Shown here piece after piece: positions 3,501-40,109 of a stretch of 64,000 nucleotides of DNA. How positions within the stretch are numbered: the first letter of the stretch is position 1; every line of letters begins with the position of its first letter. Location of the stretch: NCBI GenBank assembly GCA_944390195.1, contig CALXOZ010000002.1, positions 14,380 through 78,379 on the forward strand, read 5' to 3'. The position numbers and the translations under genes were made by a program. Below the pieces are notes generated by a model, which saw only the letters and a program-made list of their open reading frames with translations, searched no databases and was not told where the DNA came from. The DNA comes from an uncultured Alphaproteobacteria bacterium. Its GTDB lineage: Bacteria > Pseudomonadota > Alphaproteobacteria > CAAGCB01 > CAG-977.

Positions 3501-4521
3501 GTACCCATCAGCTGTAATTTTCGGCTGTTCCGGTTTGGCTTTGACCAAAGAGGAAAAAGAATTTTTTGAACGTGTCAATCCGCTTGGATTTATTTTGTTT
3601 TCCAGAAACATAGCAACACCGGATCAACTGAAGACTTTAATCCAGTCGTTAAAAGAAACGGTAAAAAGAGAAGACGCCCCCATTCTGATAGATCAGGAAG
3701 GAGGGCGTGTTTCGCGTTTAAAATCAACTTATTGGCAAAAATATCCGCCGGTACGGGTTTTCGGGGATATGTATGAAAAAGATAAAGCTTCAGCCCTGAA
3801 ATCCGTCCACGATGTTTTTCGTTTGATAGGTCATGATTTGCAAAAATTAGGGATTAATGTCGATTGTGCGCCGGTCTTGGATGTTCCTGTCGAAGGATCG
3901 AACGAAAATATATTGGGAGACAGGACTTTTTCAACTGATCCTCATACGATCGGGGTTTTGGGAAATGCCGTTTGTCAAGGGCTGATGGAAGAAGGGGTAT
4001 TGCCCGTCATAAAACATATTCCGGGACATGGTCGGGCTTTTGTGGACAGCCATTTTGAATTGCCGAAAGTCGATGCCGATCTTGAAACACTGAAAAAAAC
4101 GGACTTTATGCCGTTCAAATGTTTGTCATCGGCACCATGGGCAATGACGGCGCATGTTTTGTATACATCTTTAGACGCTCATAAACCGGCTTCTTTGTCT
4201 GAAAAAATCATTCACGACATTATTCGCAATGAAATCGGCTTCAATGGCTTTTTGGTTTGTGACGATTTGTCGATGAAAGCTTTAAAAGGAAGTTTGTCCG
4301 ACTTGACAACCGAAGTGTTGGCGGCAGGATGTGATGCCGTCTTGCATTGTAACGGGAATATGGATGAAATGGACAGGATTGCTTCCGTTATCGAACCGTT
4401 ATCCGCCAGATCCATGGAACGGTTTGTTGCGGCTCAAGAGGCACGCCGGAAAGCTTTGGAACACGCTTGCCCGTTTGATTATAAAGCGGCAAGGGCGGAA
4501 TTGTCGGAAAAAACGGCATGA
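3490..4521 (+). CDS. nagZ: beta-N-acetylhexosaminidase (GH3)
   Basis: 343 aa. 'ILIDQEGGRVSRL' and 'KHIPGHGRAFVDSHFELP' motifs of NagZ. Apparent TTG start overlapping the SPOR gene stop. Confidence 0.88.
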   Translation: MLNEYPSAVIFGCSGLALTKEEKEFFERVNPLGFILFSRNIATPDQLKTLIQSLKETVKREDAPILIDQEGGRVSRLKSTYWQKYPPVRVFGDMYEKDKASALKSVHDVFRLIGHDLQKLGINVDCAPVLDVPVEGSNENILGDRTFSTDPHTIGVLGNAVCQGLMEEGVLPVIKHIPGHGRAFVDSHFELPKVDADLETLKKTDFMPFKCLSSAPWAMTAHVLYTSLDAHKPASLSEKIIHDIIRNEIGFNGFLVCDDLSMKALKGSLSDLTTEVLAAGCDAVLHCNGNMDEMDRIASVIEPLSARSMERFVAAQEARRKALEHACPFDYKAARAELSEKTA

Positions 4522-5207
4522 GTGCTTTTGATACGCTGTTGTCTTTTCTGGAAGCCGCCATACCAGTTGTTTTGGCAATCGTGTTGCATGAAATAGCTCA
4601 TGGTTGTGTCGCCTTTTATTTCGGTGACACAACCGCAAAGGACATGAAACGCTTGTCGTTAAACCCTTTACGTCATGTCGATCCAGTCGGAACGTTGTTG
4701 TTCCCGTTGATATTGATATTGACGAATACGCCTTTTATTTTCGGGTGGGCAAAACCTGTTCCTGTAAATTTCAACCGGTTGAAAAATCCTAAAAAAGATA
4801 TGTTTTGGGTCGCCTTAGCCGGTCCGGCAATGAATTTCATTTTGGCTATGCTGTGTTTTTTGATCATCAGTTTATCCAAAAATGTTTTTCATCTTGCTTT
4901 ATCGAATGGCGTTTTCGCAATTTTAGTCAACATGATTGTGTTTAATTTTTCGATTATGCTGTTTAATTTAATCCCCGTGTTACCGTTGGATGGAGGACGG
5001 ATATTGGTATCTTTGCTGCCTTACCCTTTAGCGTTTCATTTTGCTAAAACGGAAAAATACGGGTTTATAGTCATTGCTTTATTGTTGATTTTTCTTCCGG
5101 TTTTGGGCGATCATACAGGGTATGATTTAAATTTTATAGCTTATTTTTTATCCGGAGGCGTTCGCGCACTGTTTAAGTTTTTTGCCGGATTTTTCGGGTT
5201 GGCATAA
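4518..5207 (+). CDS. site-2 protease family (peptidase M50) membrane metalloprotease
   Basis: 229 aa polytopic membrane protein with 'HEIAHG' (HExxH) in TM1 and a downstream 'LPLDGG' motif. Start ATGA overlaps the nagZ stop. Confidence 0.75.
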   Translation: MSAFDTLLSFLEAAIPVVLAIVLHEIAHGCVAFYFGDTTAKDMKRLSLNPLRHVDPVGTLLFPLILILTNTPFIFGWAKPVPVNFNRLKNPKKDMFWVALAGPAMNFILAMLCFLIISLSKNVFHLALSNGVFAILVNMIVFNFSIMLFNLIPVLPLDGGRILVSLLPYPLAFHFAKTEKYGFIVIALLLIFLPVLGDHTGYDLNFIAYFLSGGVRALFKFFAGFFGLA

Positions 5208-7792: not shown

Positions 7793-8554
7793 ATGGGCAA
7801 TCTTAGTCAGTCCAGAATTCTGATTTGCAATGATGATGGTATTCAGGCAAAGGGAATACAAGTACTTGAAAGGGTTGCCCGTCTTTTTTCCGATGATGTC
7901 TGGGTTGTTGCGCCGCAAACGGAACAAAGCGGGAAATCTCACAGCTTTACAATAGGGACGGATTTAATTGCGAAACGTGTCGCAGAACGGCATTTTTCAG
8001 TTGCTGGAACGCCGACCGATTGCGTATTGTTTGCTTGTAACGTATTAATGAAAGATAAAAAACCCGATTTCGTTTTGTCCGGAATAAACCACGGTGAAAA
8101 TGTCGGTTTGGATTTGCTGTATTCGGGAACGGTCGGTATTGCTTTGGAAGGGGCTTTGCAGGGGGCGAAATCTTTTGCGTTCAGTTTGGCCGGAGCTAAA
8201 AAAACAAGTGATTTCTGGGATATAACGGAACGTCGTGCCGAACAGGTTTTTTCATATTTCGCCGATTTCAGAGAAGCGGATTTTTTAAATGTCAATTTTC
8301 CTGCAACCGCTTCTTTAGCACCTGTAAAATTGACAACGGTTGCGGATCGTAAAATCGGAGATGACATAAAAGTGCTGTTGAATGAAAATGAAAAGATTGT
8401 ATTTTCCATTCAATCGACGCGTTCGGATTATCAAAAAAATGATATGACTGATGCAGAAGCAATAGAAAACGGTTTTGTTTCGATAACTCCGGTTCAAGTT
8501 AAATTATTCCAGCCCGCTTTTTTAAATAATAGCGTTTCTTTGGTTACTGGATAG
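7793..8554 (+). CDS. surE: 5'/3'-nucleotidase SurE
   Basis: 253 aa. 'ILICNDDGIQAKGIQ' N-terminal SurE signature and 'GINHGENVG' motif. Confidence 0.9.
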   Translation: MGNLSQSRILICNDDGIQAKGIQVLERVARLFSDDVWVVAPQTEQSGKSHSFTIGTDLIAKRVAERHFSVAGTPTDCVLFACNVLMKDKKPDFVLSGINHGENVGLDLLYSGTVGIALEGALQGAKSFAFSLAGAKKTSDFWDITERRAEQVFSYFADFREADFLNVNFPATASLAPVKLTTVADRKIGDDIKVLLNENEKIVFSIQSTRSDYQKNDMTDAEAIENGFVSITPVQVKLFQPAFLNNSVSLVTG

Positions 8555-8572
8555 TCTTTGTATGAGAATAAT

Positions 8573-8595
8573 GTCTTTATTATTATAATAAAGAC
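8573..8595. terminator. AT-rich perfect palindrome between convergent surE and an 86-aa gene (possible bidirectional terminator)
   Basis: gtctttattattataataaagac forms a 10-bp stem. There is no strong U-tract. Confidence 0.35.
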
Positions 8596-8674
8596 TGGAT
8601 TTGAAAAAACGCGCCACGAATTAAAATAAAAAACGCAAATTTAAAAGAAATTTTGCAAGGACGACGAAAGTTGT

Positions 8675-8935
8675 TCAGTCTTCCAATTTCATACGCAGAA
8701 AACGCATGAAATCCGCTTTGTCATAAGGGGGATCGAATTTTTCCAACGCCTCATCAACGGCTTTGTTGATTTCGCGTTCGGAGGCATTATCATAAGTCAT
8801 CTTTAATTGGTTGACCAGTTGTTCTCTTTGAGATTCTTGATCAGGCGAAAAAGAATTCTGATCAATATTATTTTGTTGTTGTTTTTGTTGAATTTTTTGT
8901 TGAGCTTCTTCCAACCAAGACATACACCCCTCCAT
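8675..8935 (-). CDS. hypothetical small acidic protein (last gene of the hydF transcript)
   Basis: 86 aa ORF with Gln-rich and acidic composition. It sits tightly downstream of the 95-aa gene (4-nt gap). No recognisable family. Confidence 0.4.
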   Translation of the reverse strand: MEGCMSWLEEAQQKIQQKQQQNNIDQNSFSPDQESQREQLVNQLKMTYDNASEREINKAVDEALEKFDPPYDKADFMRFLRMKLED

Positions 8936-8939
8936 TGTT

Positions 8940-9227
8940 TTAAGGTGTCAATTCCATTCCGGTGTAATAACATTGCCGTGTATCAATATCTCTTTCTTTG
9001 ATTTCATTTAAAGCGGCTTCTCGGATATGCTTATGTCTCCAATTTTTAGTCCCTTGGCATAAATCTTTCAAGGGAGCCTTTTGCGCCCATTCTTTTGCCT
9101 CAATCGGTAGTGCGTATTCTTTTTCATAAAAAGGTTGAAGGGTTGACGGGTCGTTGTGGCCGCAACAGGCAAGCAGACAGCAAGAAGCTACAAAAAGAGT
9201 GTTTTTTAAAAGAATATTTTGACTCAT
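8940..9227 (-). CDS. hypothetical small Cys-rich lipoprotein/secreted protein
   Basis: 95 aa. Signal peptide with lipobox-like LLAC|C and 6 Cys. The start overlaps the hydF stop (ATGA), implying translational coupling. Confidence 0.5.
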   Translation of the reverse strand: MSQNILLKNTLFVASCCLLACCGHNDPSTLQPFYEKEYALPIEAKEWAQKAPLKDLCQGTKNWRHKHIREAALNEIKERDIDTRQCYYTGMELTP

Positions 9228-13525: not shown

Positions 13526-13556
13526 TCTAAAAAAATTCTAAATTCATATATTTATA

Positions 13557-13590
13557 TCTTCTCCTGTAAAAAGCGGGAGAAGATTTTTTT
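13557..13590 (+). terminator. rho-independent terminator after the TolC-like gene
   Basis: tcttctcc-N11-ggagaaga stem followed by T7. Confidence 0.7.
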
Positions 13591-13603
13591 ATGAAAATTC
13601 ACT

Positions 13604-13788
13604 AATTCTAAAAAATATTGTGTATTTTGGGGTATCTCGATAACCTATAATAGATCTGTCTCAATCAATCGCTTCTTTTCGTTGAAAGGAAAACATTCCG
13701 CTTAATAATGTCAAGCCAGCTTGCCTTTCTATTGTGATAAAACCGAACCGATCTGTGTATAAACTCGTTTAAATTCCTTCCACAGCTT
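13604..13788. repeat. composite repeat copy 1 (unit A 106 bp directly abutting unit B 76 bp)
   Basis: A (aattctaaaaaatattgtgtattttggggtatctcgataacctataatagatctgtc…ccgcttaataat) is identical to 14568-14673. B (aagccagcttgcctttctattgtgataaaaccgaaccgatctgtgtataaactcgtttaaattccttccacagctt) is about 97% identical to 14826-14901. Confidence 0.9.
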
Positions 13789-14567
13789 TCAGATTTATTG
13801 TATATTCCCGCTTGAGGGGCGAAGGACATTTTTTTGATTCAAGTGTTTTCAGATTTATAAGTATATGAAATTCCGGTTGAGAAAGCGGTTTTCCATTTTT
13901 TTAAAGATAATGAAAATTAAACTTTCTTTGTTTTGATGCTTATAAAAAACTATTAATCTGCCAGTTTTTTTGAAATTCTTTTATTGTGAAAGCCTGTCAT
14001 ATGCCAAAATAAAAAATTTAAATTGAAATGCTGTAAACTTGGTTTATGACTTTTAGTGCTTCAGATCCTGAGGACTGAAATTCTTACAGGATATTGGTAT
14101 TAAATCACTATTTGAAATATTTTTGATTCTATATCCCTATATCAAAATCACATGGATATAACATGATAATAAAATATTTCACACAATAAATTGTATGTAA
14201 AAAATTTTAAAGACAATTTGTTTGAATGAAGCTTTATTCAAAAATATAAATCTTTTTAAGAAAGTTATTAATAAAAGAAAACATTCCTTATAAAACGTTA
14301 GTTTCTGTTTTGTGTATAACTTCCCATATTGCCATCTAGACTTGAATAGCGTTTTATTTGGCTGGATGCGTAATTTGTTACTTATAACCGTAAACAGAAA
14401 AATGTCTGATGTAGTATGTTATTCCCAACTGTTTTATATATATAAGGTATCTGGCGATGATTTATGTTTTTGTCTGCCGTATCTTTAAATACCATTGCTT
14501 TAAAACCGTTTATTGCGATATTTAAAATTCATGTTCTATTCATAGATCATCAAACTTATATTTCAGA

Positions 14568-14901
14568 AATTCTAAAAAATATTGTGTATTTTGGGGTATC
14601 TCGATAACCTATAATAGATCTGTCTCAATCAATCGCTTCTTTTCGTTGAAAGGAAAACATTCCGCTTAATAATCAACTTTAGTATGTCGTTATTTGCATC
14701 GCTGAATTTGATCGCAAGCTTTTTCCATAAAAGCGTTCTAAGACAGCGCCGACGTTCTTCTTGCAAAGACGGCGATGTATTTGGACGATCTGTCTTGAGT
14801 CTTCCATGAAAAGGTTAAGCCCGCTTGCCTTTCTATTGTGATAAAACCGAACCGATCTGTGTATAAACTCGTTTAAATTCCTTCCACAGCTTCCAGAAAG
14901 C
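14568..14901. repeat. composite repeat copy 2 (unit A and unit B split by a 152-bp unique insert)
   Basis: Same A and B units as 13604-13788, with 14674-14825 inserted between them. Both copies lie inside a 2.3-kb gene-free AT-rich block. Confidence 0.9.
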
Positions 14902-15475
14902 GTGCATAAGATATCTGCTGACCTGTTTTTATCGACGATGCGTGCTATCGCATAAGCGCTAATAACTTCGTGCAAGTTTTATACCGTACAATCATAGCCA
15001 TCTGAAAGCCATCTTTCTTTACTTTTCGGAAAATAACCTGATGATATTTCTATCAATGCTAGATTAAATTGCAGAAATCTTCGGTCTCACCGGTTGCTTA
15101 GGTCTTAAAGAAGTGTTACACACAATAGTGTGGGAGTTTTTTAGGGGGAGGGAGATGGCTATTCTTTCAATTTTCTCTAAAGTTCTTTTTTGTTTGAAGA
15201 TGGGCAATCTCAAAATGATCTTTATTATTGGTTACTTCTAACAAAACGACGGATTTTTTTGTCTGAAATGCGGATTAAAATTGTAATAAGATTTTTTCTT
15301 TGTTTCTCGGGATAACAGTGTCAGCATTATATAAACTGTAAGCTGTCATCTTTTTATAATCTTCTTTTTTAACTTCGATGTGCTGTAAAAGATGACGATC
15401 ATTGAGATGATTTTCTGAATATTTTCTCTGTTTTTTACCGTTTTTCGCCATAATATAGAGCAAACACAGCAAACA

Positions 15476-15510
15476 CATCATTCATTATAATTACTCTTGA
15501 CGTTAATGTC
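15476..15510. repeat. about 35-bp repeat D (second copy at 42866-42900)
   Basis: atcattcattataattactctt(tt)gacNtNaatgt is present in two distant gene-free regions. Confidence 0.6.
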
Positions 15511-15554
15511 TATCTGCCGGGCAGAATTTCATTCTATATCAAAAGATCGGTTTT

Positions 15555-15665
15555 GTGCGTAATTGCGAATGCGTTTAGCAACGATTTTTACGATTTTCAA
15601 TGATGTTTCCGTTAATAAAATTGCACGTTCGATATATCAGCTAAATGTCCTAAGCAGTAGGAATC
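15555..15665 (-). pseudogene. decayed fragment of the GGDEF-domain gene (paralogous to 20534-20645)
   Basis: About 110 bp alignable to the intact gene at 20534-20645 in the same orientation. Minus-strand translation gives RDS-YCLGHLADISNVQF* versus parent RDSDYLGRLADIEFAILL, with in-frame stops. Confidence 0.75.
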
Positions 15666-15693
15666 TCTTGACTATAAACTTGCCGGAATCACA

Positions 15694-15747
15694 TGCATAA
15701 AGAAGTCATGAATTTTTAATAAAAACGTATCATCTATAAATTTCCGA
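15694..15747. repeat. 54-bp perfect direct repeat C, copy 1 (flanks 15823-16521 gene)
   Basis: tgcataaagaagtcatgaatttttaataaaaacgtatcatctataaatttccga is identical to 16705-16758. Confidence 0.9.
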
Positions 15748-15822
15748 CAGGCGCGAAAGTTTCCTTATAAAAAAACAAGACCAATAATAAAATTGGTCTT
15801 GATAATAATCGATATAAATAAC

Positions 15823-16521
15823 TTAACGTCCTTTTGCAGCATTCATTGCTGCTATGTTTATAGGATTTAAAGTTTTGTTGTTCTTTTTTTCTCTTTGATC
15901 AACCGTTTTAAAGGAGCTCGGTGTAACAATTAAAAGTTCCTCTTTGACAGATTTCGGATTTTGCTTATACATTTCATATTCCTGCGCTGAAAGAGGCATG
16001 GCAATATAATAAGTCAACTTAGTTCCCGCACGTTCAGGGAAATAACCGTTGCGTTTATCCATAGCTGAATGAACATTTTGATGAATATCTCTGTTAGGCG
16101 TATTCGGAAGGGGCATCATACAACGCCAATCATGGATTGATGATAACACTTCGTTTCCGAATTGAACGGGACCCTTTTTAAAAGAACCACTGATAGCGCG
16201 CGGAAACAAATGGTGATAATTATAACCATTCGGAGTTTTTCCGTTGGCGACAAATTCAAAAATCTGTTTATCTGTCATTCCTGCTTGACGTAAACGTGAT
16301 ATTCCTTCTTTATTTTCCGATCCGTCAGGATTATAAACAGTATCTTTGAGCAACTGCGCTCTAACCTGTTTATATTCTTCATAAACCTTTTTGTTTTCTT
16401 CCGGAGATATACGAATTCCTTTTACAGGAACCCATTTGAAAACGAACTCTGGGCTATTGATGTTGTTTTGAAAAGAGGGCTTTTTTCCTTTGCTTTTGCG
16501 TTTTGTATGTATATATGTCAT
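15823..16521 (-). CDS. hypothetical protein with HH-hydrophobic-P / N…H motif (possible HNH-fold, AHH-like nuclease)
   Basis: 232 aa with a basic N-terminus. 'NGYNYHHLFPR…GNEVLSSIHDW' resembles the [A/L/S]HH-hh-P…N…H arrangement of HNH-superfamily toxin nucleases. No other homology recognised. Flanked by repeat C. Confidence 0.45.
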   Translation of the reverse strand: MTYIHTKRKSKGKKPSFQNNINSPEFVFKWVPVKGIRISPEENKKVYEEYKQVRAQLLKDTVYNPDGSENKEGISRLRQAGMTDKQIFEFVANGKTPNGYNYHHLFPRAISGSFKKGPVQFGNEVLSSIHDWRCMMPLPNTPNRDIHQNVHSAMDKRNGYFPERAGTKLTYYIAMPLSAQEYEMYKQNPKSVKEELLIVTPSSFKTVDQREKKNNKTLNPINIAAMNAAKGR

Positions 16522-21487: not shown

Positions 21488-21707
21488 TCAAATCCCCTTG
21501 TTTTTTTATCTTATTGAATTTTATCACTTTTTAGACTGTTTCTGCAATCAATTTTTCAAAATGGGGGTGTTTTGACAATTCGAAGATACTCTACAGCTAA
21601 AAAGAGGTATTTTATTTTTATGACAAAAGTTATATAACAGCTGATTGAAAAAAGATTGTATATAAGTTGCGGTTCGGGTATCTTCGGCCTGCTTGCTGGA
21701 GGAAAAT

Positions 21708-23153
21708 ATGACTGAAAAAAAAGTTTCTGCTTTAGAAGCCGTTTCGGATACTTATCACTACGGGTTTGAAACTGAAATTGACTCTGAAACTGCTCCGAAG
21801 GGGTTGAATGAAGACATCATACGATTTATTTCCAAGAAAAAAAACGAACCGCAATGGTTGTTAGATTTTCGTTTGAAAGCTTTCCGGCATTGGCTGACGA
21901 TGAAAGAACCGACTTGGGCAAAGATTACTTATCCCCCGATTGATTATCAGGATATTTATTATTATGCGGCTCCGAAAAGAGCTTCCGCCCCTAAAAGCCT
22001 TGATGAGGTCGATCCGGAATTGTTAAAAACATACGATAAGTTAGGGGTGCCGTTGCATGAACGTGAAATCTTGGCGGGTGTTGCTGTTGACGCCGTGTTT
22101 GACAGTGTTTCCGTCGCAACGACTTTTCGTGATAAATTAGCCCGACAGGGGATTATTTTCTGCTCTATTTCCGAAGCTGTTCAAAATCATCCGGATTTGG
22201 TGAAAAAATATTTGGGTTCTGTTGTTCCTTATACGGATAATTTCTTTGCCTGTTTGAATTCGGCTGTTTTTACGGACGGGACTTTTGTCTATATTCCTAA
22301 AGGTGTCCGTTGTCCGATGGAATTATCAACTTATTTTAGAATTAACGCTAAAAAATCCGGACAGTTTGAACGCACAATGATTATTGCCGACGATCATTCC
22401 TATGTCAGTTATCTGGAAGGATGCACCGCTCCTCAACGCGATGAAAACCAGTTGCACGCCGCTATTGTGGAAATCATTGTGATGAATAACGCCGAAGTGA
22501 AATATTCCACTGTTCAAAATTGGTTTCCGGGGGATAAGGAAGGAAAAGGCGGCATATATAATTTCGTAACCAAAAGGGGGGTGTGCAAGGGAGTTAATGC
22601 CAAACTGTCTTGGACACAAGTTGAAACAGGATCCGCTATTACTTGGAAATATCCATCTTGCGTTTTATTGGGAGACAATTCCGTCGGTGAATTTTATTCC
22701 GTGGCGATTACAAACAATTTCCAGCAAGCCGACACGGGAACGAAAATGATCCACATTGGTAAAAACACGTCTTCCACAATCGTGTCAAAAGGGATTTCTG
22801 CGGGAAAATCACAAAATACATATCGCGGCTTGGTTCAGATGGGAAAAAATGCCGATCATGCAAGAAACTTTTCTCAATGCGATAGTTTACTCATCGGTTC
22901 TTGTTGCGGAGCCCATACTTTACCTTATATGATAAGTAACAATCCTTCCGCACAGGTCGAACATGAAGCGACAACTTCTAAAATCAGCGATGACCAGCTG
23001 TTTTATTGCCGTCAAAGGGGGATTAATGCCGAAGATGCCGTTTCTTTGATTGTTAATGGTTTTTGTAAAGATGTTATGCAAAAGTTGCCAATGGAGTTTG
23101 CTGTGGAAGCAACTCGCTTAGTCGCGGTTACTCTTGAAGGAAGCGTCGGTTGA
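21708..23153 (+). CDS. sufB: Fe-S cluster assembly protein SufB
   Basis: About 480 aa SufB/SufD family with a conserved C-terminal beta-helix. ATG 21708 is preceded by GGAGG; the track's upstream extension uses TTG. Confidence 0.9.
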
Positions 23154-23169
23154 ACAAGGAGAAAATATA

Positions 23170-23934
23170 ATGTCAGCATGGCTGAAAATAAAAGATTTAT
23201 GTGTGAAAGTTGCGGATAAACCGATTTTAAACGACCTTTCTTTGTCCATAAACGCCGGAGAGGTTCATGTCATCATGGGACCAAACGGTTGCGGAAAAAG
23301 CACGCTGTCCAATGTTTTGTGCGGTAATCAAAACTACGAGGTAACCGGAGGCTTTATTGATTTTAAAGATAAAAATCTCTTGGAAATGAATGTCGAAGAA
23401 CGAGCTTGTGCGGGTATATTTTTGGCTTTTCAACATCCAGTTGAAATCCCCGGCGTATCAATGGCGACCTTTATGAAATATGCTTTGAACGCTAGACGAA
23501 AAGCCCAAGGAAAACAGGAACTTGACGCAGTCAGTTTCATAAAACGGATTAAAGTGCGTGCGCAGGCTTTGGGGATTTCGGACGAAATGTTAAAAAGACC
23601 CGTTAATGTGGGGTTTTCTGGCGGAGAAAAAAAACGTTTGGAAATTTTTCAAATGGCAGTGCTGGAACCGGATTTTTGCATTTTGGACGAAATGGATTCT
23701 GGGCTTGATGTCGATGCGGTCAAGGTGGCGGGGAACGGTGTGAAAATCATGCGTTCTGAACAAAGGTCTTTTTTGGTCATCTCGCATAATATCAGGTTTT
23801 TAAAAGAACAAATCCAACCCGATAAAATCCATGTCATGGTTCATGGACGCATTGTCGCCCAAGGTGGTATGGAACTGTTGGATGAAATTGATAAAAACGG
23901 ATTTTCCGCTTTTCTGAAAGAGGCGGTGGCATAA
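23170..23934 (+). CDS. sufC: Fe-S cluster assembly ATPase SufC
   Basis: Walker A 'GPNGCGKST', ABC signature 'FSGGEKKR', Walker B 'ILDEMDSGLD'. AAGGAG RBS. Confidence 0.93.
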   Translation: MSAWLKIKDLCVKVADKPILNDLSLSINAGEVHVIMGPNGCGKSTLSNVLCGNQNYEVTGGFIDFKDKNLLEMNVEERACAGIFLAFQHPVEIPGVSMATFMKYALNARRKAQGKQELDAVSFIKRIKVRAQALGISDEMLKRPVNVGFSGGEKKRLEIFQMAVLEPDFCILDEMDSGLDVDAVKVAGNGVKIMRSEQRSFLVISHNIRFLKEQIQPDKIHVMVHGRIVAQGGMELLDEIDKNGFSAFLKEAVA

Positions 23935-24662
23935 TGATAAAAACCCTTTCAAAACAGCGTCTGTTGACAATTGATTCCGGTCAATCCGTTGTTTTTTTTG
24001 AAAAACAACTTGCGCCTAAAACACAAATCACCATAGCCAAAAATGCTCATGTTAAACATTATCGTCTGCATGAAATGACAGATCACTCTTTGTTTGTACG
24101 TTTGGAAGATAATGCCAGTTATGAACTGATCACATTGCATCGAGGCGATGGGAATTTGACACTTTATTTCGATTTGTCTGGGAAAAACGCGTTTTGTCAA
24201 AGCAATATCGTGTATGTGTTATCGGAAAACAAAAATACATTAATTCATTGTGATGTCCATCATAATGCGGATGACACTGTTTCCCGCCAATTCGTCAAAG
24301 GAGCTGTTTGCGCCAATGCAAAAGCCGTCTTCCAAGGAGGCATCTTCATTCCTTATAATAAAAAAGGAATAGATGGCATGCAACAACATCGGGCTTTGTT
24401 GTTAGGGAAAAACGCTTGCGCTCAAGCCGTTCCGCAATTGGAAATATATGCGGATGATGTAAAATGTGCTCATGGTTCCGCAATCGGTTTCTTAGATCAA
24501 GAACAGATGTTTTATTTGCAATCCAGAGGCCTTGATGAAGAACAGGCTCGAACTTTGCTGACGACGGCGTTCTTAAATGAAATACTGGACGATATTGAAG
24601 ATGATGAAGTGCGTGAAGAACTAAAATCTTTGGCGCTTGAAGAGGTCTGTCATGGCAATTGA
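23934..24662 (+). CDS. sufD: Fe-S cluster assembly protein SufD (short form, C-terminal core only)
   Basis: 242 aa. Matches the conserved SufD C-terminal region (…QQHRALLLGKNACAQAVPQLEIYADDVKCAHGSAIG…). Lacks the usual N-terminal about 180 aa. Coupled ATGA with sufC. Confidence 0.7.
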   Translation: MIKTLSKQRLLTIDSGQSVVFFEKQLAPKTQITIAKNAHVKHYRLHEMTDHSLFVRLEDNASYELITLHRGDGNLTLYFDLSGKNAFCQSNIVYVLSENKNTLIHCDVHHNADDTVSRQFVKGAVCANAKAVFQGGIFIPYNKKGIDGMQQHRALLLGKNACAQAVPQLEIYADDVKCAHGSAIGFLDQEQMFYLQSRGLDEEQARTLLTTAFLNEILDDIEDDEVREELKSLALEEVCHGN

Positions 24663-25872
24663 TGTTGAAAAAATCAGATCTGATTTTCCGGCTTTATCTT
24701 TGACAATGCACGGTAAGCCATTGATTTTTTTAGATAGCGCCGCTTCCGCTCAAAAACCGCTGTGTGTCTTGGATGTGATCAAGAATCAATATGTTAATGA
24801 ATATGCCAATGTTCATCGTGGCGTTTACAGATTGTCCGAAAAAGCGACATTGAATTTTGAACAGGCGCGTCAAAAAGTCCGTCATTTTATTAATGCGGCA
24901 AGTGATAAAGAAATTGTTTTTACCAGGGGAGCGACAGATTCCATTAATCTGGTTGCTTATACATGGGCGGCGTCCAATTTAAAAGACGGAGATGAAATCA
25001 TTTTATCGCAAGCCGAACATCATTCAAATATTGTTCCTTGGCAGATTTTGCAAAAAAGAATTAATTTCAAAATCAAAATCGTTCCTGTCGACGATAATGG
25101 CGACTTTATTTTTGAAGAATATTTGAAGTTGCTTAATGAAAAAACAAAGCTTGTTTCTGTGATGCACGTTTCCAACGTATTGGGAACGGTTTTTCCTGTT
25201 AAAGAAATTATCCGGTCGGCACATGAACAAGGGGCGGTCGTTTTAATTGACGGATGTCAAGGGGCGACTCATATGCCTGTGGATGTCCAAGATCTGGAAT
25301 GTGATTTTTATGTTTTTTCCGGTCATAAACTTTATGGTCCGACGGGGATAGGGGTTTTGTACGGGAAACTGTCTTTATTAAAAGAGATGCCTCCGTTTGA
25401 AGGCGGGGGCGACATGATTAAAAGCGTTTCTTTTGAAAAAAGCGTCTGGGCGGAGCCTCCCGCCCGTTTTGAAGCCGGTACGCCTGCAATCATGCAGGCA
25501 GTGGGGTTAGGGCATGCTATTGATTATGTCAATAAAATCGGTATGGATGAAATCGAATTGCATGAAAGACAATTATGCCAGCTATTGCAAGGGGAAATGT
25601 TAAAAATTCCAGGCATCAGAGTAATCGGAAATTCGAATGACAAGGCGGCTGTTGTCAGTTTTGTTGCCGATTTCGCTCATCCGCAAGATATGGCGATGAT
25701 TCTCGACCAAGAAGGCATTGCTGTCAGAACAGGACACCATTGTGCACAACCTTTGCATGAACGTTTTGGCGTTTCCGTAACCGTCAGAGCTTCACTGGGA
25801 GTTTATAATACTCAAAGTGATATTGAGAATTTCATCAAAGCGGTTCATAAAGTTAAGCGGTTCTTCACTTGA
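24652..25872 (+). CDS. sufS: cysteine desulfurase SufS (class II aminotransferase V)
   Basis: 407 aa. PLP-Lys region '…FSGHKLYGPTGIG…' and active-site Cys loop '…RTGHHCAQPLH…'. Confidence 0.92.
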   Translation: MAIDVEKIRSDFPALSLTMHGKPLIFLDSAASAQKPLCVLDVIKNQYVNEYANVHRGVYRLSEKATLNFEQARQKVRHFINAASDKEIVFTRGATDSINLVAYTWAASNLKDGDEIILSQAEHHSNIVPWQILQKRINFKIKIVPVDDNGDFIFEEYLKLLNEKTKLVSVMHVSNVLGTVFPVKEIIRSAHEQGAVVLIDGCQGATHMPVDVQDLECDFYVFSGHKLYGPTGIGVLYGKLSLLKEMPPFEGGGDMIKSVSFEKSVWAEPPARFEAGTPAIMQAVGLGHAIDYVNKIGMDEIELHERQLCQLLQGEMLKIPGIRVIGNSNDKAAVVSFVADFAHPQDMAMILDQEGIAVRTGHHCAQPLHERFGVSVTVRASLGVYNTQSDIENFIKAVHKVKRFFT

Positions 25873-25890
25873 TTTTATAGGAGAAAAAAC

Positions 25891-26046
25891 ATGATGGATG
25901 AAAAAAAAGGTTGCGGTTGTTCTTCTTCAAAATCCACAGACAAAAAAACAGTTCATGCCGACGCGGATCAAAACAAGCAAAAGCATGCTATGGGTGATAA
26001 AAACGCCGATCATATGAAAGAAGTGAAAAACGCTCCTAAAAAATAA
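25891..26046 (+). CDS. small Cys/His/Lys-rich ORF (51 aa), not in the ORF track
   Basis: AGGAG RBS 8 nt upstream of ATG. MMDEKKGCGCSSSKSTDKKTVHADADQNKQKHAMGDKNADHMKEVKNAPKK. It fills the sufS–sufT gap. Confidence 0.5.
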   Translation: MMDEKKGCGCSSSKSTDKKTVHADADQNKQKHAMGDKNADHMKEVKNAPKK

Positions 26047-26142
26047 ATTTTCATTTTGCGTGCTTCTCTATAAAGATAAAGATTGAAAATTGATAAAAAG
26101 CGTTGCATAAAGTCTTTAAAGATTCTTTGTGGAGAAATGGGG

Positions 26143-26772
26143 ATGGAAGAAAAAAAGCTTTCGGATCAAAAAGAATCAACAGCCTCTGATAATGCGGAGG
26201 CTGTTAATTTGTCGACACTTGACAATGAAGACAAGTTGAAAAAGTTGTCCAGTTTTTCAGGGACAATAGAAATTTCATTGCCGATCGGTCGTCAAGATGA
26301 AAAACAACAAGAAAACCTTTCCTTTTCAAAGTTTGATGACATTTCGGCAGATGAGTTTAAAGACTTTGAGGATTTGTTATGGGGTGGCAATATGCCAGAC
26401 GCTCCGGTTTTAAATTTCGGAGACGAGTATGTTGTAACAGAAGGTGAAACTCTGGAAGACGGGAAAAAACAATCAGATATTGATGAAATCATTCAGGCAA
26501 TACGGACTGTCGAAGATCCAGAGCTGATGTTGAATGTTTATGATCTGGGATTGATCTACCGGTTGGATAAATTAAAAAACGGAGATGTTGAAATCGATAT
26601 GACTGTAACGGCTCCGTCATGTCCCGTTGCCGGGGTCATGCCGAAACAGGTTGCTCAAGCTGTTTCAAAATTGGAAGGAACAGGGAAGGTAACCGTTAAG
26701 TTGGTATGGGAGCCGGTATGGACAATTGATAAAATGACGGACGAGGCAAAATATATTTTAAATATGTTTTAG
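26143..26772 (+). CDS. sufT: SufT/DUF59 (MIP18-family) Fe-S assembly protein with N-terminal acidic extension
   Basis: C-terminal 'VEDPELMLNVYDLGLIYRL…MTVTAPSCPVAG' DUF59 core. The N-terminal about 110 aa is acidic and low-complexity. Confidence 0.75.
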   Translation: MEEKKLSDQKESTASDNAEAVNLSTLDNEDKLKKLSSFSGTIEISLPIGRQDEKQQENLSFSKFDDISADEFKDFEDLLWGGNMPDAPVLNFGDEYVVTEGETLEDGKKQSDIDEIIQAIRTVEDPELMLNVYDLGLIYRLDKLKNGDVEIDMTVTAPSCPVAGVMPKQVAQAVSKLEGTGKVTVKLVWEPVWTIDKMTDEAKYILNMF

Positions 26773-26777
26773 ACAAT

Positions 26778-27224
26778 CTAATTGATCTGATTGATCCAGT
26801 CTATGTCTTCGTTCATTTTCAATTCATGTGGAATTTTAATATATTTACTTTCCAAATAGTCAATCATCAACGGACTGAGATATTCTATTCCGGCAAACAT
26901 CAAGCTGCGATTGAAGTCTTTGGTTAAGAAGAATTCGACAATTTCCCATTTGTCCTGATCAACAGCCAAAGAGACGGCATTTTTTCCATTTGAAATGATA
27001 AAGGCTGGATCTGCGCCGTTTTCCATTAAATATTGAACAATTTCCAGACAATCATTATCAACCGCTTTATACAATAAAGCGCAAAGAACTTCTTTGTTGA
27101 AAGAGATGTTATCAAACACAGATTGTATTTGAGATCTTGAAATATTTTTGCCTTTCAATAATTCTTCAAATTTTTCTTCAAAAGACATACCTTTTACTCT
27201 GATACAACTATTTGATTTAAACAA
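26778..27224 (-). CDS. ankyrin-repeat protein
   Basis: About 140 aa with at least 2 ANK-like repeats (LCALLYKAVDNDCLEIVQYLMENGADP…NGKNAVSLAVDQDKWEIVEFFL). Located 12 bp downstream of the 405-aa gene on the same strand. Confidence 0.65.
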   Translation of the reverse strand: MFKSNSCIRVKGMSFEEKFEELLKGKNISRSQIQSVFDNISFNKEVLCALLYKAVDNDCLEIVQYLMENGADPAFIISNGKNAVSLAVDQDKWEIVEFFLTKDFNRSLMFAGIEYLSPLMIDYLESKYIKIPHELKMNEDIDWINQIN

Positions 27225-27235
27225 AAGAGAAGATG

Positions 27236-28453
27236 TTACCTGTTTTTGTTATTTTTCAAAAGCGTCAAAAGAGCGGGGTGAACTTTTCTATCCGAAGTGT
27301 CTTTCAAAGATCTGTTTTGATCGGAAGCATTTTCAGAAGCAGCACGTCTTCCATACATACTGCCTCTGGACGGAAGATCGACATAACTTTTATCTTCCTG
27401 TTTTCCGGTTAAATTTTTTCTGGATTGGAAGAAAAGGTCGGCTGCATTTTTTGTTTCGGTTGATATTCCGCACATTTTTGGGTCATCCAATATATTGGGG
27501 TTATCTTTAAAATAGCATTGACCGTTTGATGTTTGGCAAAACATTTCGACGATTTCTTTGGAAGACATATTTCCTTCAAAAGGAAGCTCTTCAAATGTTT
27601 TCAATTGATCGTCTTTTTTTTGGAAAGCGATGCTTGTCAAATTAAAATAGAGATAATCTTCTTCATAGATATCAACTGTATTTTTTTGTTCAAACCATCC
27701 TTTAAAGGCGTCTTGCATTGTTTTGCTTTGATTTTCAATGACTTTTTCAACAGGCGCATCTTTTGACGGGGCAGAAATGGCATTTGCGATTAAAGGATAA
27801 GAGGAACAGAATTTTTGCCAGACTTTGGAATCTCTTGTTGTAGCTCTGATTTCTAAAGCGACTTGTGCGGCGGTAGCTTGAGCATCAGCTTCGGCGGCGC
27901 GATTCAACTTGACCTCGGTAGCAAGATCTTTCTGGCACAACATATCGGGAAGCCCGCGAGAATGTTGATAGACGTGTCTGACTTCATGTGCCAAAGTTGT
28001 TTTTAATTTTGCATCACTGCAACACGGGTTGATCATGACAATATTTTTTGTCGGATCGAAATACCCGTAACCGGTATCCTGATAATCGAAGCCTATTTTT
28101 GTGCCGTGTTCAGCAGCGTTTTGTAGCAAACTTCTTCCGGTTTCCGAATTTTTTGCAATGGAATTGATCAAAGCGGTCAGACGTTTTTTTTCATTTTTCG
28201 ATCCTGTCAATTCAATATCAACGACAGGAGGTTCATTTTTATAAAAACCGCGGACGAAAGGGGAGGAATAAAGTGTATGAAAAAAAGATTTTTTCATTTC
28301 ATGTTTTTTTTGTTCGATTTTCATCAGAGTTTCTATAAGATGACTATTTCCTTCAATATTTTGAGGGGATGAAAAAATTTGATTAAGCATGGAAGGATTT
28401 TTTGGTTTTCCTTGTGTTTTATTTTCTTGATGAATTTGATCGAAAAAAGACAT
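27236..28453 (-). CDS. hypothetical protein with HExxHxxQ zinc-metallopeptidase-like motif (DUF4157-like) and about 240-aa unknown C-terminal region
   Basis: 405 aa. '…GYGYFDPTKNIVMINP…TTLAHEVRHVYQHSRG' resembles the DUF4157 pattern (G..F/Y…I.……LLAHELTHVVQ). No signal peptide. The C-terminal region is unrecognised. Confidence 0.5.
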   Translation of the reverse strand: MSFFDQIHQENKTQGKPKNPSMLNQIFSSPQNIEGNSHLIETLMKIEQKKHEMKKSFFHTLYSSPFVRGFYKNEPPVVDIELTGSKNEKKRLTALINSIAKNSETGRSLLQNAAEHGTKIGFDYQDTGYGYFDPTKNIVMINPCCSDAKLKTTLAHEVRHVYQHSRGLPDMLCQKDLATEVKLNRAAEADAQATAAQVALEIRATTRDSKVWQKFCSSYPLIANAISAPSKDAPVEKVIENQSKTMQDAFKGWFEQKNTVDIYEEDYLYFNLTSIAFQKKDDQLKTFEELPFEGNMSSKEIVEMFCQTSNGQCYFKDNPNILDDPKMCGISTETKNAADLFFQSRKNLTGKQEDKSYVDLPSRGSMYGRRAASENASDQNRSLKDTSDRKVHPALLTLLKNNKNR

Positions 28454-28539
28454 GAAAATTTCCTCTTATCCTGATTTTATCAAGGATAAAAATTATACAA
28501 TAAATATATTTTTTTTTAAAGGGTAATTTTGATTGAAAT

Positions 28540-29637
<1,098 letters not shown>

Positions 29638-30399: not shown

Positions 30400-31017
30400 T
30401 CATTTTAGATAAGCTTTGATGGGAGCATAGGATTTTCTATGATGAATGCAAACTCCGTGTTCTTTCAACCCTTTTTGATGCAATTTGGTTCCGTATCCGG
30501 CGTTTTTTTCCCATCCGTAATAAGGAAAATCCTTTGCCAAACAGCTCATGATGTTGTCTCTGGTTACTTTCGCTATGATAGAGGCCGCAGCAATTGATAA
30601 GCTTAAGGCGTCTCCTTTGACGATTGCCCGAGCCGGACAGGGGAGGAGCGGTGGAACTTTGTTGCCGTCAACCAATGCGAATGAGGGCACGCAGGGCAGG
30701 TTTTCGACAGCTCGCCGCATAGCTAAAAAAGTTGCCTGTAAAATGTTTAAACGGTCTATTTCTTCAACGCTAGCGATACCGCAACCGATCAAGGCGGAAC
30801 AGGAATGTAAACTTTCAAACAGTTCTTCGCGTTTGTGACGGGAAAGTTTTTTTGAATCATCTAAAGCCTGTGATAAAAAAACGGGTATTTCCAGATCCGG
30901 AAAAACCACCGCTGCGGCGACGACGGGACCCGCCCAAGGTCCACGACCGGCTTCGTCAATGCCGGCGATTAAAGAGTGGATATTTATTATTGAGGCTTCA
31001 TATTTGAAATCAGGCAT
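30400..31017 (-). CDS. rnhB: ribonuclease HII
   Basis: 205 aa. 'IAGIDEAGRGPWAGPVVAAAVV' catalytic N-terminus. Confidence 0.9.
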   Translation of the reverse strand: MPDFKYEASIINIHSLIAGIDEAGRGPWAGPVVAAAVVFPDLEIPVFLSQALDDSKKLSRHKREELFESLHSCSALIGCGIASVEEIDRLNILQATFLAMRRAVENLPCVPSFALVDGNKVPPLLPCPARAIVKGDALSLSIAAASIIAKVTRDNIMSCLAKDFPYYGWEKNAGYGTKLHQKGLKEHGVCIHHRKSYAPIKAYLK

Positions 31018-38772: not shown

Positions 38773-38948
38773 AAGCATTTTTTATTATAATGAATTAAAA
38801 GTCTTCTATTTGTCTATATTTTTTCATTTTAAAATAAAAACAACACTATTTCTTATACTGATCGAAGAAAAAAGTTGAACTGTTTTGTCTAATAATGTTA
38901 TCCTGAAATCTCGGGTTGGTTGTTCTGACAGGTCAAAAGGGGAAAAAA

Positions 38949-40109
38949 ATGGCAAATGTAGCGGCATTTTATCTTTTAAATCAAAGCGGAGCCTTTAAGG
39001 GGTTGTTTTCGTTTGAAAATTCTGAAGGTTTTGTTGCTCGTCCGGATCGTTATCGCAATGCCGGAATGAATGATGACATTTTAGAATCCTATTTGGCGGG
39101 GGCTTGTAAAATGAAATTGTCAGGGGCGTCTAATATTACCAATGTTTTCGGAGAAGCTGCCCGTTCCAATTTAAAGAATGTGCCTGATTACAAACAATTT
39201 GCCGCAAAACAGGTTGAAATGATTGAACCGCCGTCTTTTTTGGAAAAAATGATGGTGATTAATAAAAGTGTCGCTCAATCCAAATTGGGAAAAGTTGCAG
39301 GAAAAGCAACATTGGGAGCTGTTCCCGTCGCTTTGACATTGGTTGCCATGTCCGCTCGAGCATACGGAGCCACACGTCATTTCGTAATGGAAAAATTAAA
39401 TCTTAATAAAACAAATCAAAAATCTTTTTCAGATCGATTGAAGGAAATTAAAAACCGTATCGGATATAAAAACGATCTGAAAAAAATTAATAATATGGAA
39501 AAGTTGCAAAAAACAGGCGATCTGTTGAATCGTTTGCAATGGCAAGCGGGCACTGTTTCAAGTTATAATAAAGATTTTTCGGAATTGCAGAAAATTTCTT
39601 CAACTCATCCGTTGTTGGTCAATTATATGGAAGGTTTCGCCTTGATTGACGACAAAGGGAAGGGAAAGTTGTTGGCGGATCGTTATATCATTCCGCAAAA
39701 TAAAGATAATTATCCCATTTATTCAAATTGGGACGCCCAAAGAAAAATCGATCAATTACCTCCTTTGAAAGCTGGAGATCTTCGCGATGATATCACACGC
39801 CATATAAAAGCTGTCGAAATGATAGATCCTCCGACAAAAACGGAATTGAAATTGATAAGAAAGATAAAGCGATTCAATCTCTTAAAAGAACAAAAAAGTG
39901 TGGATTCCCCCATATTGGCTGTTGTTAACAAATCTCTTGAAAAGATGATGACTTGTTATGTTGCGGAAAAACAGAAAAAAGACTCATCCCTCAATGCTCA
40001 AGAAGGCATGTTGGGAAGGTTAAAGGATCTTCAAAGGCGCGATCAGGCTCAAGACCGTTTGAACAAGTTGTGTGCTTTGGAAAAAAAGTTGAAAAAAAAC
40101 GGTAGATAA
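38949..40109 (+). CDS. hypothetical protein (no signal peptide; Lys-rich, possibly secreted effector-like)
   Basis: About 386 aa from ATG 38949 (AAGGGG upstream); the track starts at 38916. No family recognised. Confidence 0.5.
   Translation: MANVAAFYLLNQSGAFKGLFSFENSEGFVARPDRYRNAGMNDDILESYLAGACKMKLSGASNITNVFGEAARSNLKNVPDYKQFAAKQVEMIEPPSFLEKMMVINKSVAQSKLGKVAGKATLGAVPVALTLVAMSARAYGATRHFVMEKLNLNKTNQKSFSDRLKEIKNRIGYKNDLKKINNMEKLQKTGDLLNRLQWQAGTVSSYNKDFSELQKISSTHPLLVNYMEGFALIDDKGKGKLLADRYIIPQNKDNYPIYSNWDAQRKIDQLPPLKAGDLRDDITRHIKAVEMIDPPTKTELKLIRKIKRFNLLKEQKSVDSPILAVVNKSLEKMMTCYVAEKQKKDSSLNAQEGMLGRLKDLQRRDQAQDRLNKLCALEKKLKKNGR

Follow-up and report, generated by a model that had tools for sequence, protein, structure and literature searches.

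A DUF6782-family putative zinc metallopeptidase with an arginine-ended C-terminal tail in uncultured gut Alphaproteobacteria

We analyzed a 64,000-nucleotide stretch of DNA, here called the window, from an uncultured Alphaproteobacteria bacterium (assembly GCA_944390195.1, contig CALXOZ010000002.1, positions 14,380 to 78,379 of the forward strand). Between the suf operon and ccrM it carries a gene for a 405-aa protein with an HExxHxxQ motif that, judged by sequence, almost certainly belongs to the Pfam family DUF6782 (PF20573), and behind it a small ankyrin-repeat (Ank) gene. We lean towards reading the 405-aa protein as a zinc endopeptidase that lacks a Sec signal and bears a basic, Arg-terminated C-terminal sorting tail shared with other proteins; that the tail serves as an export signal is a more tentative proposal. 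On its own, the window gene adds one member to a catalogued domain of unknown function. The interest lies in the family context: confinement to one lineage, long tandem arrays, strict catalytic residues and an Arg-ended tail common to unrelated proteins. The features on which this reading is built are as follows.

27236..28453, minus strand: DUF6782-family putative zinc metallopeptidase gene, 405 aa, ATG start, stop included, open reading frame (ORF) intact
27965..27988, minus strand: active-site helix motif H156-E157-x-R159-H160-x-x-Q163 (HEVRHVYQ), from conservation in the alignment of 74 representatives
27881..27892, minus strand: E188-A-D190-A ('EADA'), with E188 28 residues past H160, the gluzincin or IrrE-like spacing
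27239..27292, minus strand: disordered basic C-terminal tail DRKVHPALLTLLKNNKNR-COOH, with an amphipathic stretch, basic residues and a terminal Arg (residues 376-405 are modelled at low confidence, see below)
15823..16521, minus strand: gene for a 232-aa lineage-specific protein with an HNH/AHH-like motif and the tail ...NPINIAAMNAAKGR, whose tail score of 16 is the best in the window

Family assignment

The 405-aa protein, whose ORF translation contains '...GYFDPTKNIVMINPCCSDAKLKTTLAHEVRHVYQH...' with HEVRHVYQ, matches DUF6782 at 144.4 bits (E 4.7e-42), over residues 77-315 and profile positions 16-240 of 241, where the gathering cutoff is 27 bits. It had been described in an earlier note on this DNA as DUF4157-like. 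The profile search that bears on this gave no significant match to the DUF4157 model, eCIS_core (PF13699), which reached 13.5 bits (E 0.084) over residues 151-167, below its cutoff of 22. We aligned 74 family representatives, 20-47% identical to the window protein, and scanned them against Pfam at E<=0.01; membership in DUF6782 rather than DUF4157 is assigned because DUF6782 was matched by 74/74 and eCIS_core by 0/74. The window protein shares with DUF6782 the full-length profile, the HExxH...E...D residues, the length class and the host lineage. What it has in common with DUF4157 is the zincin superfamily and an HExxHxxQ-type helix that follows a beta strand ending in '...NP'; the resemblance is limited to the 17 aligned residues of that active-site helix, and DUF6782 shows neither a variable toxin module nor a contractile-injection or polymorphic-toxin context in the sequence seen. 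The broader description in the earlier note, a metallopeptidase-like HExxH protein, fits well: the 405-aa protein is of zincin type and carries HEVRHVYQ.

Among other profiles, Peptidase_M78 gave 16.6 bits (E 0.0069) with the 405-aa protein, below its cutoff of 22, and M76 was likewise sub-threshold. Among the 74 relatives there were sporadic matches to Peptidase_M78 (8, the best at 1.5e-5 and all sub-threshold), DUF3920 (9), SprT-like (3) and M91 (2). A PHROGs family named 'metallo-protease' matches the 405-aa protein (E 1.9e-6), Pfam describes DUF6782 as a 'putative metallopeptidase family', and the NCBI product name of one relative is 'DUF6782 family putative metallopeptidase'. NCBIfam and PADLOC gave no informative match for the protein, no relative of solved structure was found by single-sequence or profile query, and longer family members showed no informative domain fusions. 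A role in anti-phage defence was considered and set aside: PADLOC matched the peptidase not at all and the Ank protein only weakly (PDC-M72A, E 2e-4, over the ankyrin repeat).

Predicted fold and catalytic residues

An AlphaFold2 (AF2) model of the 405-aa protein, built with an alignment of nine close relatives, has a predicted local distance difference test (pLDDT) score above 85 for residues ~70-370 and disordered ends at 1-60 and 376-405 (pLDDT <50 for 376-405). The disordered N-terminus of the window copy (~60 residues) is longer than in most DUF6782 members. The modelled body comprises a three-stranded sheet (119-141), the HExxH helix (147-165), a long helix bearing E188 (177-206) and a further helical subdomain, and thus contains the zincin layout of a beta-sheet, an HExxH active-site helix and a helix with the third ligand. 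The best Foldseek match of the model is IrrE (probability 0.96), followed by selecase and abylysin. On this model DUF6782 would be a zincin-fold family closest to the ImmA/IrrE-type and 'mini' gluzincins. The minimal zincins (Wss1/SprT, selecase, abylysin) have catalytic modules of ~110-130 residues and are 10-25% identical, whereas DUF6782 has ~300 residues with a helical domain of its own.

H156, E157, H160, E188 and D190 are invariant in the 74 representatives, and R159, Q163, W253, Y263 and Y314 are at least 90% conserved. Among 149 single-domain copies from the loci described below, HExxHxxQ is kept in 148, and E[AGS]D[AS] lies 24-33 residues beyond HExxH, with a mode of 28, also in 148/149. 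Because the predicted fold is that of a zincin, E188 is the putative third zinc ligand. With these residues and this model, the 405-aa protein is probably catalytically competent. One otherwise intact copy, at L004 10781-11899, has AYESRH in place of AHExRH and so has lost the first zinc-binding His; it is the sole such case among the 149 and may be a pseudo-enzyme.

The C-terminal part, ~240 aa that the earlier note found unrecognisable, proves to be part of the family. The DUF6782 match covers residues 77-315, the family alignment is collinear and conserved to about residue 365, and structure prediction gives this part a confident fold within the conserved domain; the closest orthologues share CYF and FF..R..TG..D.SY..LP.RG motifs beyond the HExxH helix. 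Since the region after that helix is conserved across the family, the whole ~300-residue body is one family domain, not a peptidase joined to a variable toxin. We also looked at a sortase-like reading of the conserved 'LPxRG' near the C-terminus and rejected it, as no hydrophobic segment follows the motif.

The C-terminal tail

DUF6782 proteins end in ~30 disordered residues whose sequence is poorly conserved but whose layout is shared: a short stretch rich in Ala, Leu and Val is followed by basic residues and, at the very end, by Arg (for example ...HPALLTLLKNNKNR, ...PPSLVAAMNKLRQGR and ...ALSPAVLSALSARRSR). Of the 149 single-domain locus copies, 121 end in Arg and 13 in Lys; their final 12 residues carry a net charge that averages +3.2, compared with 0 for the whole proteins. 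Terminal Arg is also found in 112/149 representatives taken at <=50% identity, and R405 is at least 90% conserved in the 74-sequence alignment, on par with near-catalytic positions. A Sec-type N-terminal or transmembrane hydrophobic segment is absent from the window protein and from 118/121 DUF6782 representatives, by a test in which the window's envelope proteins scored as expected. The other three (P0120, P0135, P0139) carry additional N-terminal sequence that includes a hydrophobic anchor or a signal-like stretch, and are possibly a minor membrane-attached subfamily.

The tail is not confined to DUF6782. We built a position-specific scoring matrix (PSSM) from the last 18 residues and scored it on the 858 other gene-like ORFs of the loci and window. 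Outside DUF6782, eight proteins reached 10 bits or more; shuffled tails predict 0.4 and internal windows gave none. These eight belong to at least two mutually unrelated families plus singletons, with no Pfam match above cutoff. One family includes the 232-aa protein listed above, which is unrelated to DUF6782, matches no Pfam family above cutoff and ends in GR. Its family (~230-290 aa) has an 'NYHHLFP...IHQNVH' motif, which in the window protein reads 'NGYNYHHLFP...DIHQNVH', and an orthologue matches AHH at E 0.011. A database search with the 232-aa protein found 46 relatives, and all 42 that are full-length are Arg-terminated, with tails such as ...SVADIAKLKTAKGR. The second family consists of 550-824-aa K/E-rich proteins, again with no Pfam match, that lie beside many DUF6782 arrays.

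Sites of the K/E-rich proteins include L019 942-3344, L020 3077-5272, L025 3304-5415, L027 1985-3970, L044 1208-3397 and L070 2019-4493, and they usually adjoin a ~120-aa lipoprotein. In the window, a 397-aa protein without a Pfam match (38916-40109, plus strand) ends in '...LNKLCALEKKLKKNGR' and has a tail PSSM score of 6.4-7.5; it may be another tail-bearing protein.

Distribution and expansion

Scanning a single genome for each GTDB species gave 70 DUF6782 loci in 26 assemblies (loci are numbered with L here), all but one of them titled as uncultured Alphaproteobacteria, Rhodospirillales or Rhodospirillaceae metagenome-assembled genomes (MAGs), from sources such as human gut, rumen and horse faeces. 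In a profile search of the ORFs of all loci collected up to then, 175 DUF6782 ORFs were recognized, many of them arranged head to tail in groups of 4-10. At least 4-14 DUF6782 domains are present in every one of the 26 assemblies but two, and there are at least 155 domains in total; these counts per assembly are lower bounds, coming only from a pattern-limited scan. An exhaustive HMMER search of 1.84 billion cluster representatives, clustered at 50% identity, returned 804 clusters at E<=1e-3 and 359 at E<=1e-10. A mobile-element origin was rejected, there being no tblastn match in 72,556 plasmids and 50,697 phages and none in IMG/VR contigs. In the collections searched, DUF6782 is found only in uncultured gut, rumen and faecal Alphaproteobacteria. 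The ccrM, rnhB and suf genes flanking the pair in the window share 70-90% identity with their counterparts in these MAGs. A literature search on the presumed lineage, RF32/CAG-239, turned up community surveys only.

One assembly, CAVCSV01 (L010, L035, L077), is titled 'Limosilactobacillus gorillae' and carries alphaproteobacterial ccrM, rnhB, DUF6782 arrays and Ank; the bin label is almost certainly wrong.

The arrays show some further arrangements. In several genomes two adjacent DUF6782 genes are fused into two-domain ORFs of ~700 aa (for example L003 4910-7033, L009 6789-9032, L011 6885-9011 and L073 10001-12127; P0002, P0003). Directly upstream of one conserved paralogue group lies a gene of a ~197-aa family without Pfam matches (L053 7363-8004, with DUF6782 at 8001-9011; also L055, L047, L061, L058, L056, L045 and L040), all members of which end in '...LR'. 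Its 4-nt overlap with the start of DUF6782 in L053 and L055 points to translational coupling, and the family may be a genuine partner of that paralogue group. At L062 2034-5264 (minus strand) a 1076-aa ORF starting '...DYILGLDLGSTSLGWSVVELD', by eye Cas9 RuvC-I-like, adjoins a DUF6782 array and has two small ORFs after it.

Proposed function and alternatives

The protein is made in the cytoplasm, with neither a Sec or Tat signal nor a transmembrane segment. To judge from its predicted zincin fold and the invariant H156, E157, H160, E188 and D190, it would bind zinc and act as an endopeptidase. Substrate choice may be shaped by the helical C-terminal subdomain of ~150 residues, and diversification of the paralogues may have produced different specificities. 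Because unrelated lineage-specific families carry the Arg-terminated tail, we propose that it is a sorting tag for one common machine. The route that we favour is Sec-independent export, by analogy with the substrates of VirB/D4 type IV secretion, whose translocation signal is an Arg-rich, unstructured C-terminus (PMC10025392). We compared the DUF6782 tail with the tails of VirD2, VirD5, VirE2 and VirE3 of pTiC58, of which those of VirD2 and VirD5, read from the plasmid, are Arg-rich and end in Arg. The likeness to VirB/D4 substrates (VirF, VirE2, VirD2, VirD5) lies in an unstructured, net-positive, Arg-containing C-terminus borne by unrelated proteins. If export is right, the DUF6782 proteins would form a diversified repertoire of secreted or injected peptidases.

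Several observations weigh against this picture. When the window and 1.14 Mb of related loci, only a few percent of those genomes, were searched by tblastn with pTiC58 VirB1/4/8/9/10/11, VirD4 and TraG, no type IV secretion system (T4SS) genes were found. The only matches, VirB11-like, are a T2SSE/T2SSF pair, and substrates of that system would need signal peptides. Neither the near-invariance of the last residue nor the short Ala/Leu-rich amphipathic helix ahead of it is a usual trait of known type IV secretion signals. Such a basic tail might just as well act as a degron, or tether the protein to a membrane or partner. Finally, neither DUF6782 nor PF20573 appears in any paper of the literature searched. 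The T2SSE/T2SSF pair itself, of type II secretion or a type IV pilus, consists of a T2SSE ATPase (L053 2108-3799) and a T2SSF platform protein (3818-4912), recurs in L055 and L040, and lies ~4 kb upstream of one DUF6782 paralogue group.

A degron is the form that the tail takes in the alternative we consider next, in which DUF6782 proteins are cytoplasmic regulatory proteases of the ImmA/IrrE (M78) kind, each paralogue cleaving a specific intracellular regulator or foreign protein, and the tail is a ClpXP- or Lon-type degron or a docking peptide that keeps their levels low. We think this unlikely, although it has real attractions. M78/IrrE (COG2856) is the nearest characterized neighbour by both profile and fold, the ~28 residues from HExxH to the Glu match IrrE, there is no signal peptide, no exporter was found in the window and the 1.14 Mb, and basic C-terminal ClpX recognition motifs exist. 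Yet every M78 match is below the Pfam cutoff, and DUF6782 differs in its extra ~150-residue helical subdomain, its basic tail and its massive tandem arrays; dozens of fast-diverging tandem paralogues would be unusual for housekeeping regulators. Nor is there a helix-turn-helix (HTH) or repressor gene (the ImmR/DdrO-type substrate) beside the window copy, whose neighbours are ccrM and Ank, or in the arrays, where no recurrent neighbour matched a Pfam HTH family. The families that share the tail are lineage-specific and without Pfam annotation, not regulators.

That last group of proteins bears on a further idea, that the tail plugs the cleft at the protein's own active site, so that, like a minigluzincin zymogen, the peptidase stays latent until the tail is taken off. 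The abylysin zymogen and selecase are among the nearest Foldseek folds, and a flexible C-terminal Arg peptide could mimic a product, but the idea fits poorly because non-peptidase families (the 232-aa HNH/AHH-like and 550-824-aa proteins) carry the same tail, and in the AF2 model the tail is undocked, with pLDDT <50; we regard it as quite improbable. Scarcely better placed is the suggestion that DUF6782 proteins are not peptidases but binding proteins, or enzymes whose HExxH/Glu metal site does different chemistry (such as the Fe/2-oxoglutarate-type oxidation of ChlH-like HExxH proteins). Most structural and profile neighbours are true peptidases, the invariant HExxH general-base Glu and the downstream Glu ligand are the canonical gluzincin set, and there are no biosynthetic genes, or genes for ribosomally synthesized and post-translationally modified peptides (RiPPs), nearby.

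Returning to the zinc endopeptidase with a sorting tail, its broadest extension would be a lineage-specific, Sec-independent sorting system in uncultured gut and rumen Alphaproteobacteria, with a short amphipathic stretch, basic residues and a C-terminal Arg as its signal and, as its cargo, a large and fast-diversifying repertoire to which the DUF6782 zinc peptidases (dozens per genome), the HNH/AHH-like and the 550-824-aa K/E-rich proteins would belong. We offer this as a speculation, one that is probably wrong in at least some part. Were it true, a common but unstudied member of the animal gut microbiota would possess an arsenal of effectors, and a signal for their export, that are new to description. 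Should the tail be such a signal, it would give a simple sequence rule for listing secreted or injected proteins and a lead to the machine that reads it; if it is instead a degron or tether, it would still mark a co-regulated set of lineage-specific proteins.

Locus, inheritance and the ankyrin-repeat gene

The genes and sites around the 405-aa gene are as follows.

26778..27188, minus strand: ankyrin-repeat protein gene, 136 aa, with the true ATG at 27188 (from Pfam Ank/Ank_3, homologue lengths, AF2 and Foldseek)
28540..29625, minus strand: ccrM-type N6-adenine methyltransferase ORF, the upstream flank and a synteny anchor
30400-31017, minus strand: rnhB, upstream and on the same strand as ccrM
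26083..26772, plus strand: SufT-like FeS_assembly_P gene, last gene of the convergent suf operon and the downstream synteny anchor
28492..28520, minus strand: sigma-70-like promoter match TTTAAA-17-TATAAT in the ccrM/DUF6782 spacer, 10/12 in a consensus scan and a pattern match only
28461..28466, minus strand: Shine-Dalgarno-like AGAGGA, 7 nt ahead of the ATG of the 405-aa gene, read from the sequence

The arrangement reported in the earlier note, a 405-aa HExxHxxQ protein and a co-oriented downstream gene lying between the suf operon and ccrM, stands: both are intact minus-strand ORFs, flanked by sufB-sufC-sufD-sufS-sufT-like (21693-26772, plus strand), which is convergent with the pair, and by ccrM. 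Its spacing of 12 bp does not, the gap being 47 nt when measured from the ATG at 27188. A 148-aa version of the Ank ORF with a TTG start (26778-27224, minus strand) reaches 27224, but of 38 Ank homologues the 34 that are full-length have 133-136 aa (31 of them exactly 136), and those in the alignment begin at ATG 27188 (MSF...). For that reason we take 26778-27188 as the true gene and the longer ORF as an artefact of ORF calling. No terminator-like site was matched between the DUF6782 and Ank genes, and the two may be co-transcribed. A 100% identical copy of the 405-aa protein with the same neighbours is found on contigs of two separate metagenome assemblies, where it is annotated with two extra N-terminal residues.

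The gene order rnhB-ccrM-[DUF6782 x1-4]-Ank-(AMP deaminase)-sufT-sufSDCB-GGDEF recurs in L003, L005, L009, L012 and L073-L075. In a neighbour-joining tree, DUF6782 copies at the ccrM site cluster by array slot and not by genome, and the window copy with that of L005 is sister to the clade of the Ank-proximal slot. Because synteny is conserved and copies group by slot, the ccrM-site array is taken to be old and vertically inherited, the window genome having kept one slot. The statement that neither gene belongs to the conserved alphaproteobacterial backbone is thus right for Alphaproteobacteria at large and wrong within this lineage, where both are syntenic and conserved. Identities to orthologues are 78-90% for CcrM (whose orthologues have N6_N4_Mtase and RAMA domains), 69-82% for SufS, 55-69% for SufT, 59-64% for Ank and 40-51% for DUF6782. 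Composition gives no clear sign of a foreign island, because although GC over the two genes is ~31-43%, with a low of 0.31 over the Ank gene, other parts of the window, which ranges over ~23-50%, reach similar lows.

That the downstream gene encodes a small ankyrin-repeat protein rests on weak but real profile matches (Ank_3, 23.8 bits with a cutoff of 22.3; Ank, 22.3 with 21.1; Ank_2, 25.9, just under 27.3) and an ankyrin-like predicted fold (AF2 pLDDT 87; Foldseek matches to DARPins and V-1, probability 1.0, TM-score 0.57-0.66). It has no signal peptide, and the alignment shows its C-terminal 80 residues to be very strongly conserved. It is a conserved, lineage-specific small ankyrin protein that nothing marks as an immunity factor.

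The earlier note had proposed that the pair is a toxin-immunity module, with the 405-aa protein as DUF4157-type cargo or toxin of a contractile injection or polymorphic-toxin system. Some facts lean that way: the HExxHxxQ helix resembles that of DUF4157 (the local eCIS_core match given above), the genes point the same way and lie close together, without a terminator match in between, and in the rearranged second context of L022 and L077 Ank still lies within ~2.5 kb of DUF6782 genes, although a single rearrangement of the ancestral locus would explain that context. The proposal is nonetheless largely refuted by the separability of the two genes. The locus also shows the conserved vertical synteny that the note itself had listed among the grounds for giving the proposal up. 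Ank occurs without DUF6782 in L079/L080 (ccrM-Ank-AMP deaminase-sufT), and DUF6782 without Ank in L016 (ccrM-DUF6782-sufT) and in all the arrays, where dozens of DUF6782 genes have no neighbouring Ank and no small genes are interspersed. Only one or two Ank genes were seen per genome, each alongside many DUF6782 copies (at least 4-14 in most assemblies). Ank is also better conserved than DUF6782 by the identities above, and this slower evolution would be the opposite of what a co-diversifying immunity gene does. Add the sub-threshold eCIS_core result, the conserved rather than polymorphic C-terminal part and the lack of a PADLOC match, and Ank looks separately conserved, neither an obligate partner nor an antidote of the 405-aa protein. 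Genes of extracellular contractile injection systems, type VI secretion systems or T4SS were not seen in the 64-kb window or among the recurrent neighbours near DUF6782 arrays. All told, we judge a toxin-immunity pair of this type very improbable; the peptidase itself may still have a host- or competitor-directed role.

Other features of the window

The rest of the window is ordinary chromosome, with argS, tatC, serS, surE, pntAB, suf, PFOR, relA/spoT, lepB, rnc, era, recO, parC, ssb, gyrA and others, mostly recognized by eye from translations and in some cases checked with Pfam. At its N-terminus the SufT-like FeS_assembly_P protein is extended by ~100 residues. Several related genomes have, between Ank and sufT, an AMP-deaminase-family gene that the window lacks (for example L073 12550-14055). 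Rfam and tRNA scans gave no matches in the 64-kb window, including a 2.3-kb AT-rich stretch at 13530-15820 (24-41% GC) that has no ORF over 100 aa. Within this stretch is a direct repeat of ~200 bp, 13598-13793 against 14562-14673 plus 14811-14897, at 95-98% identity.

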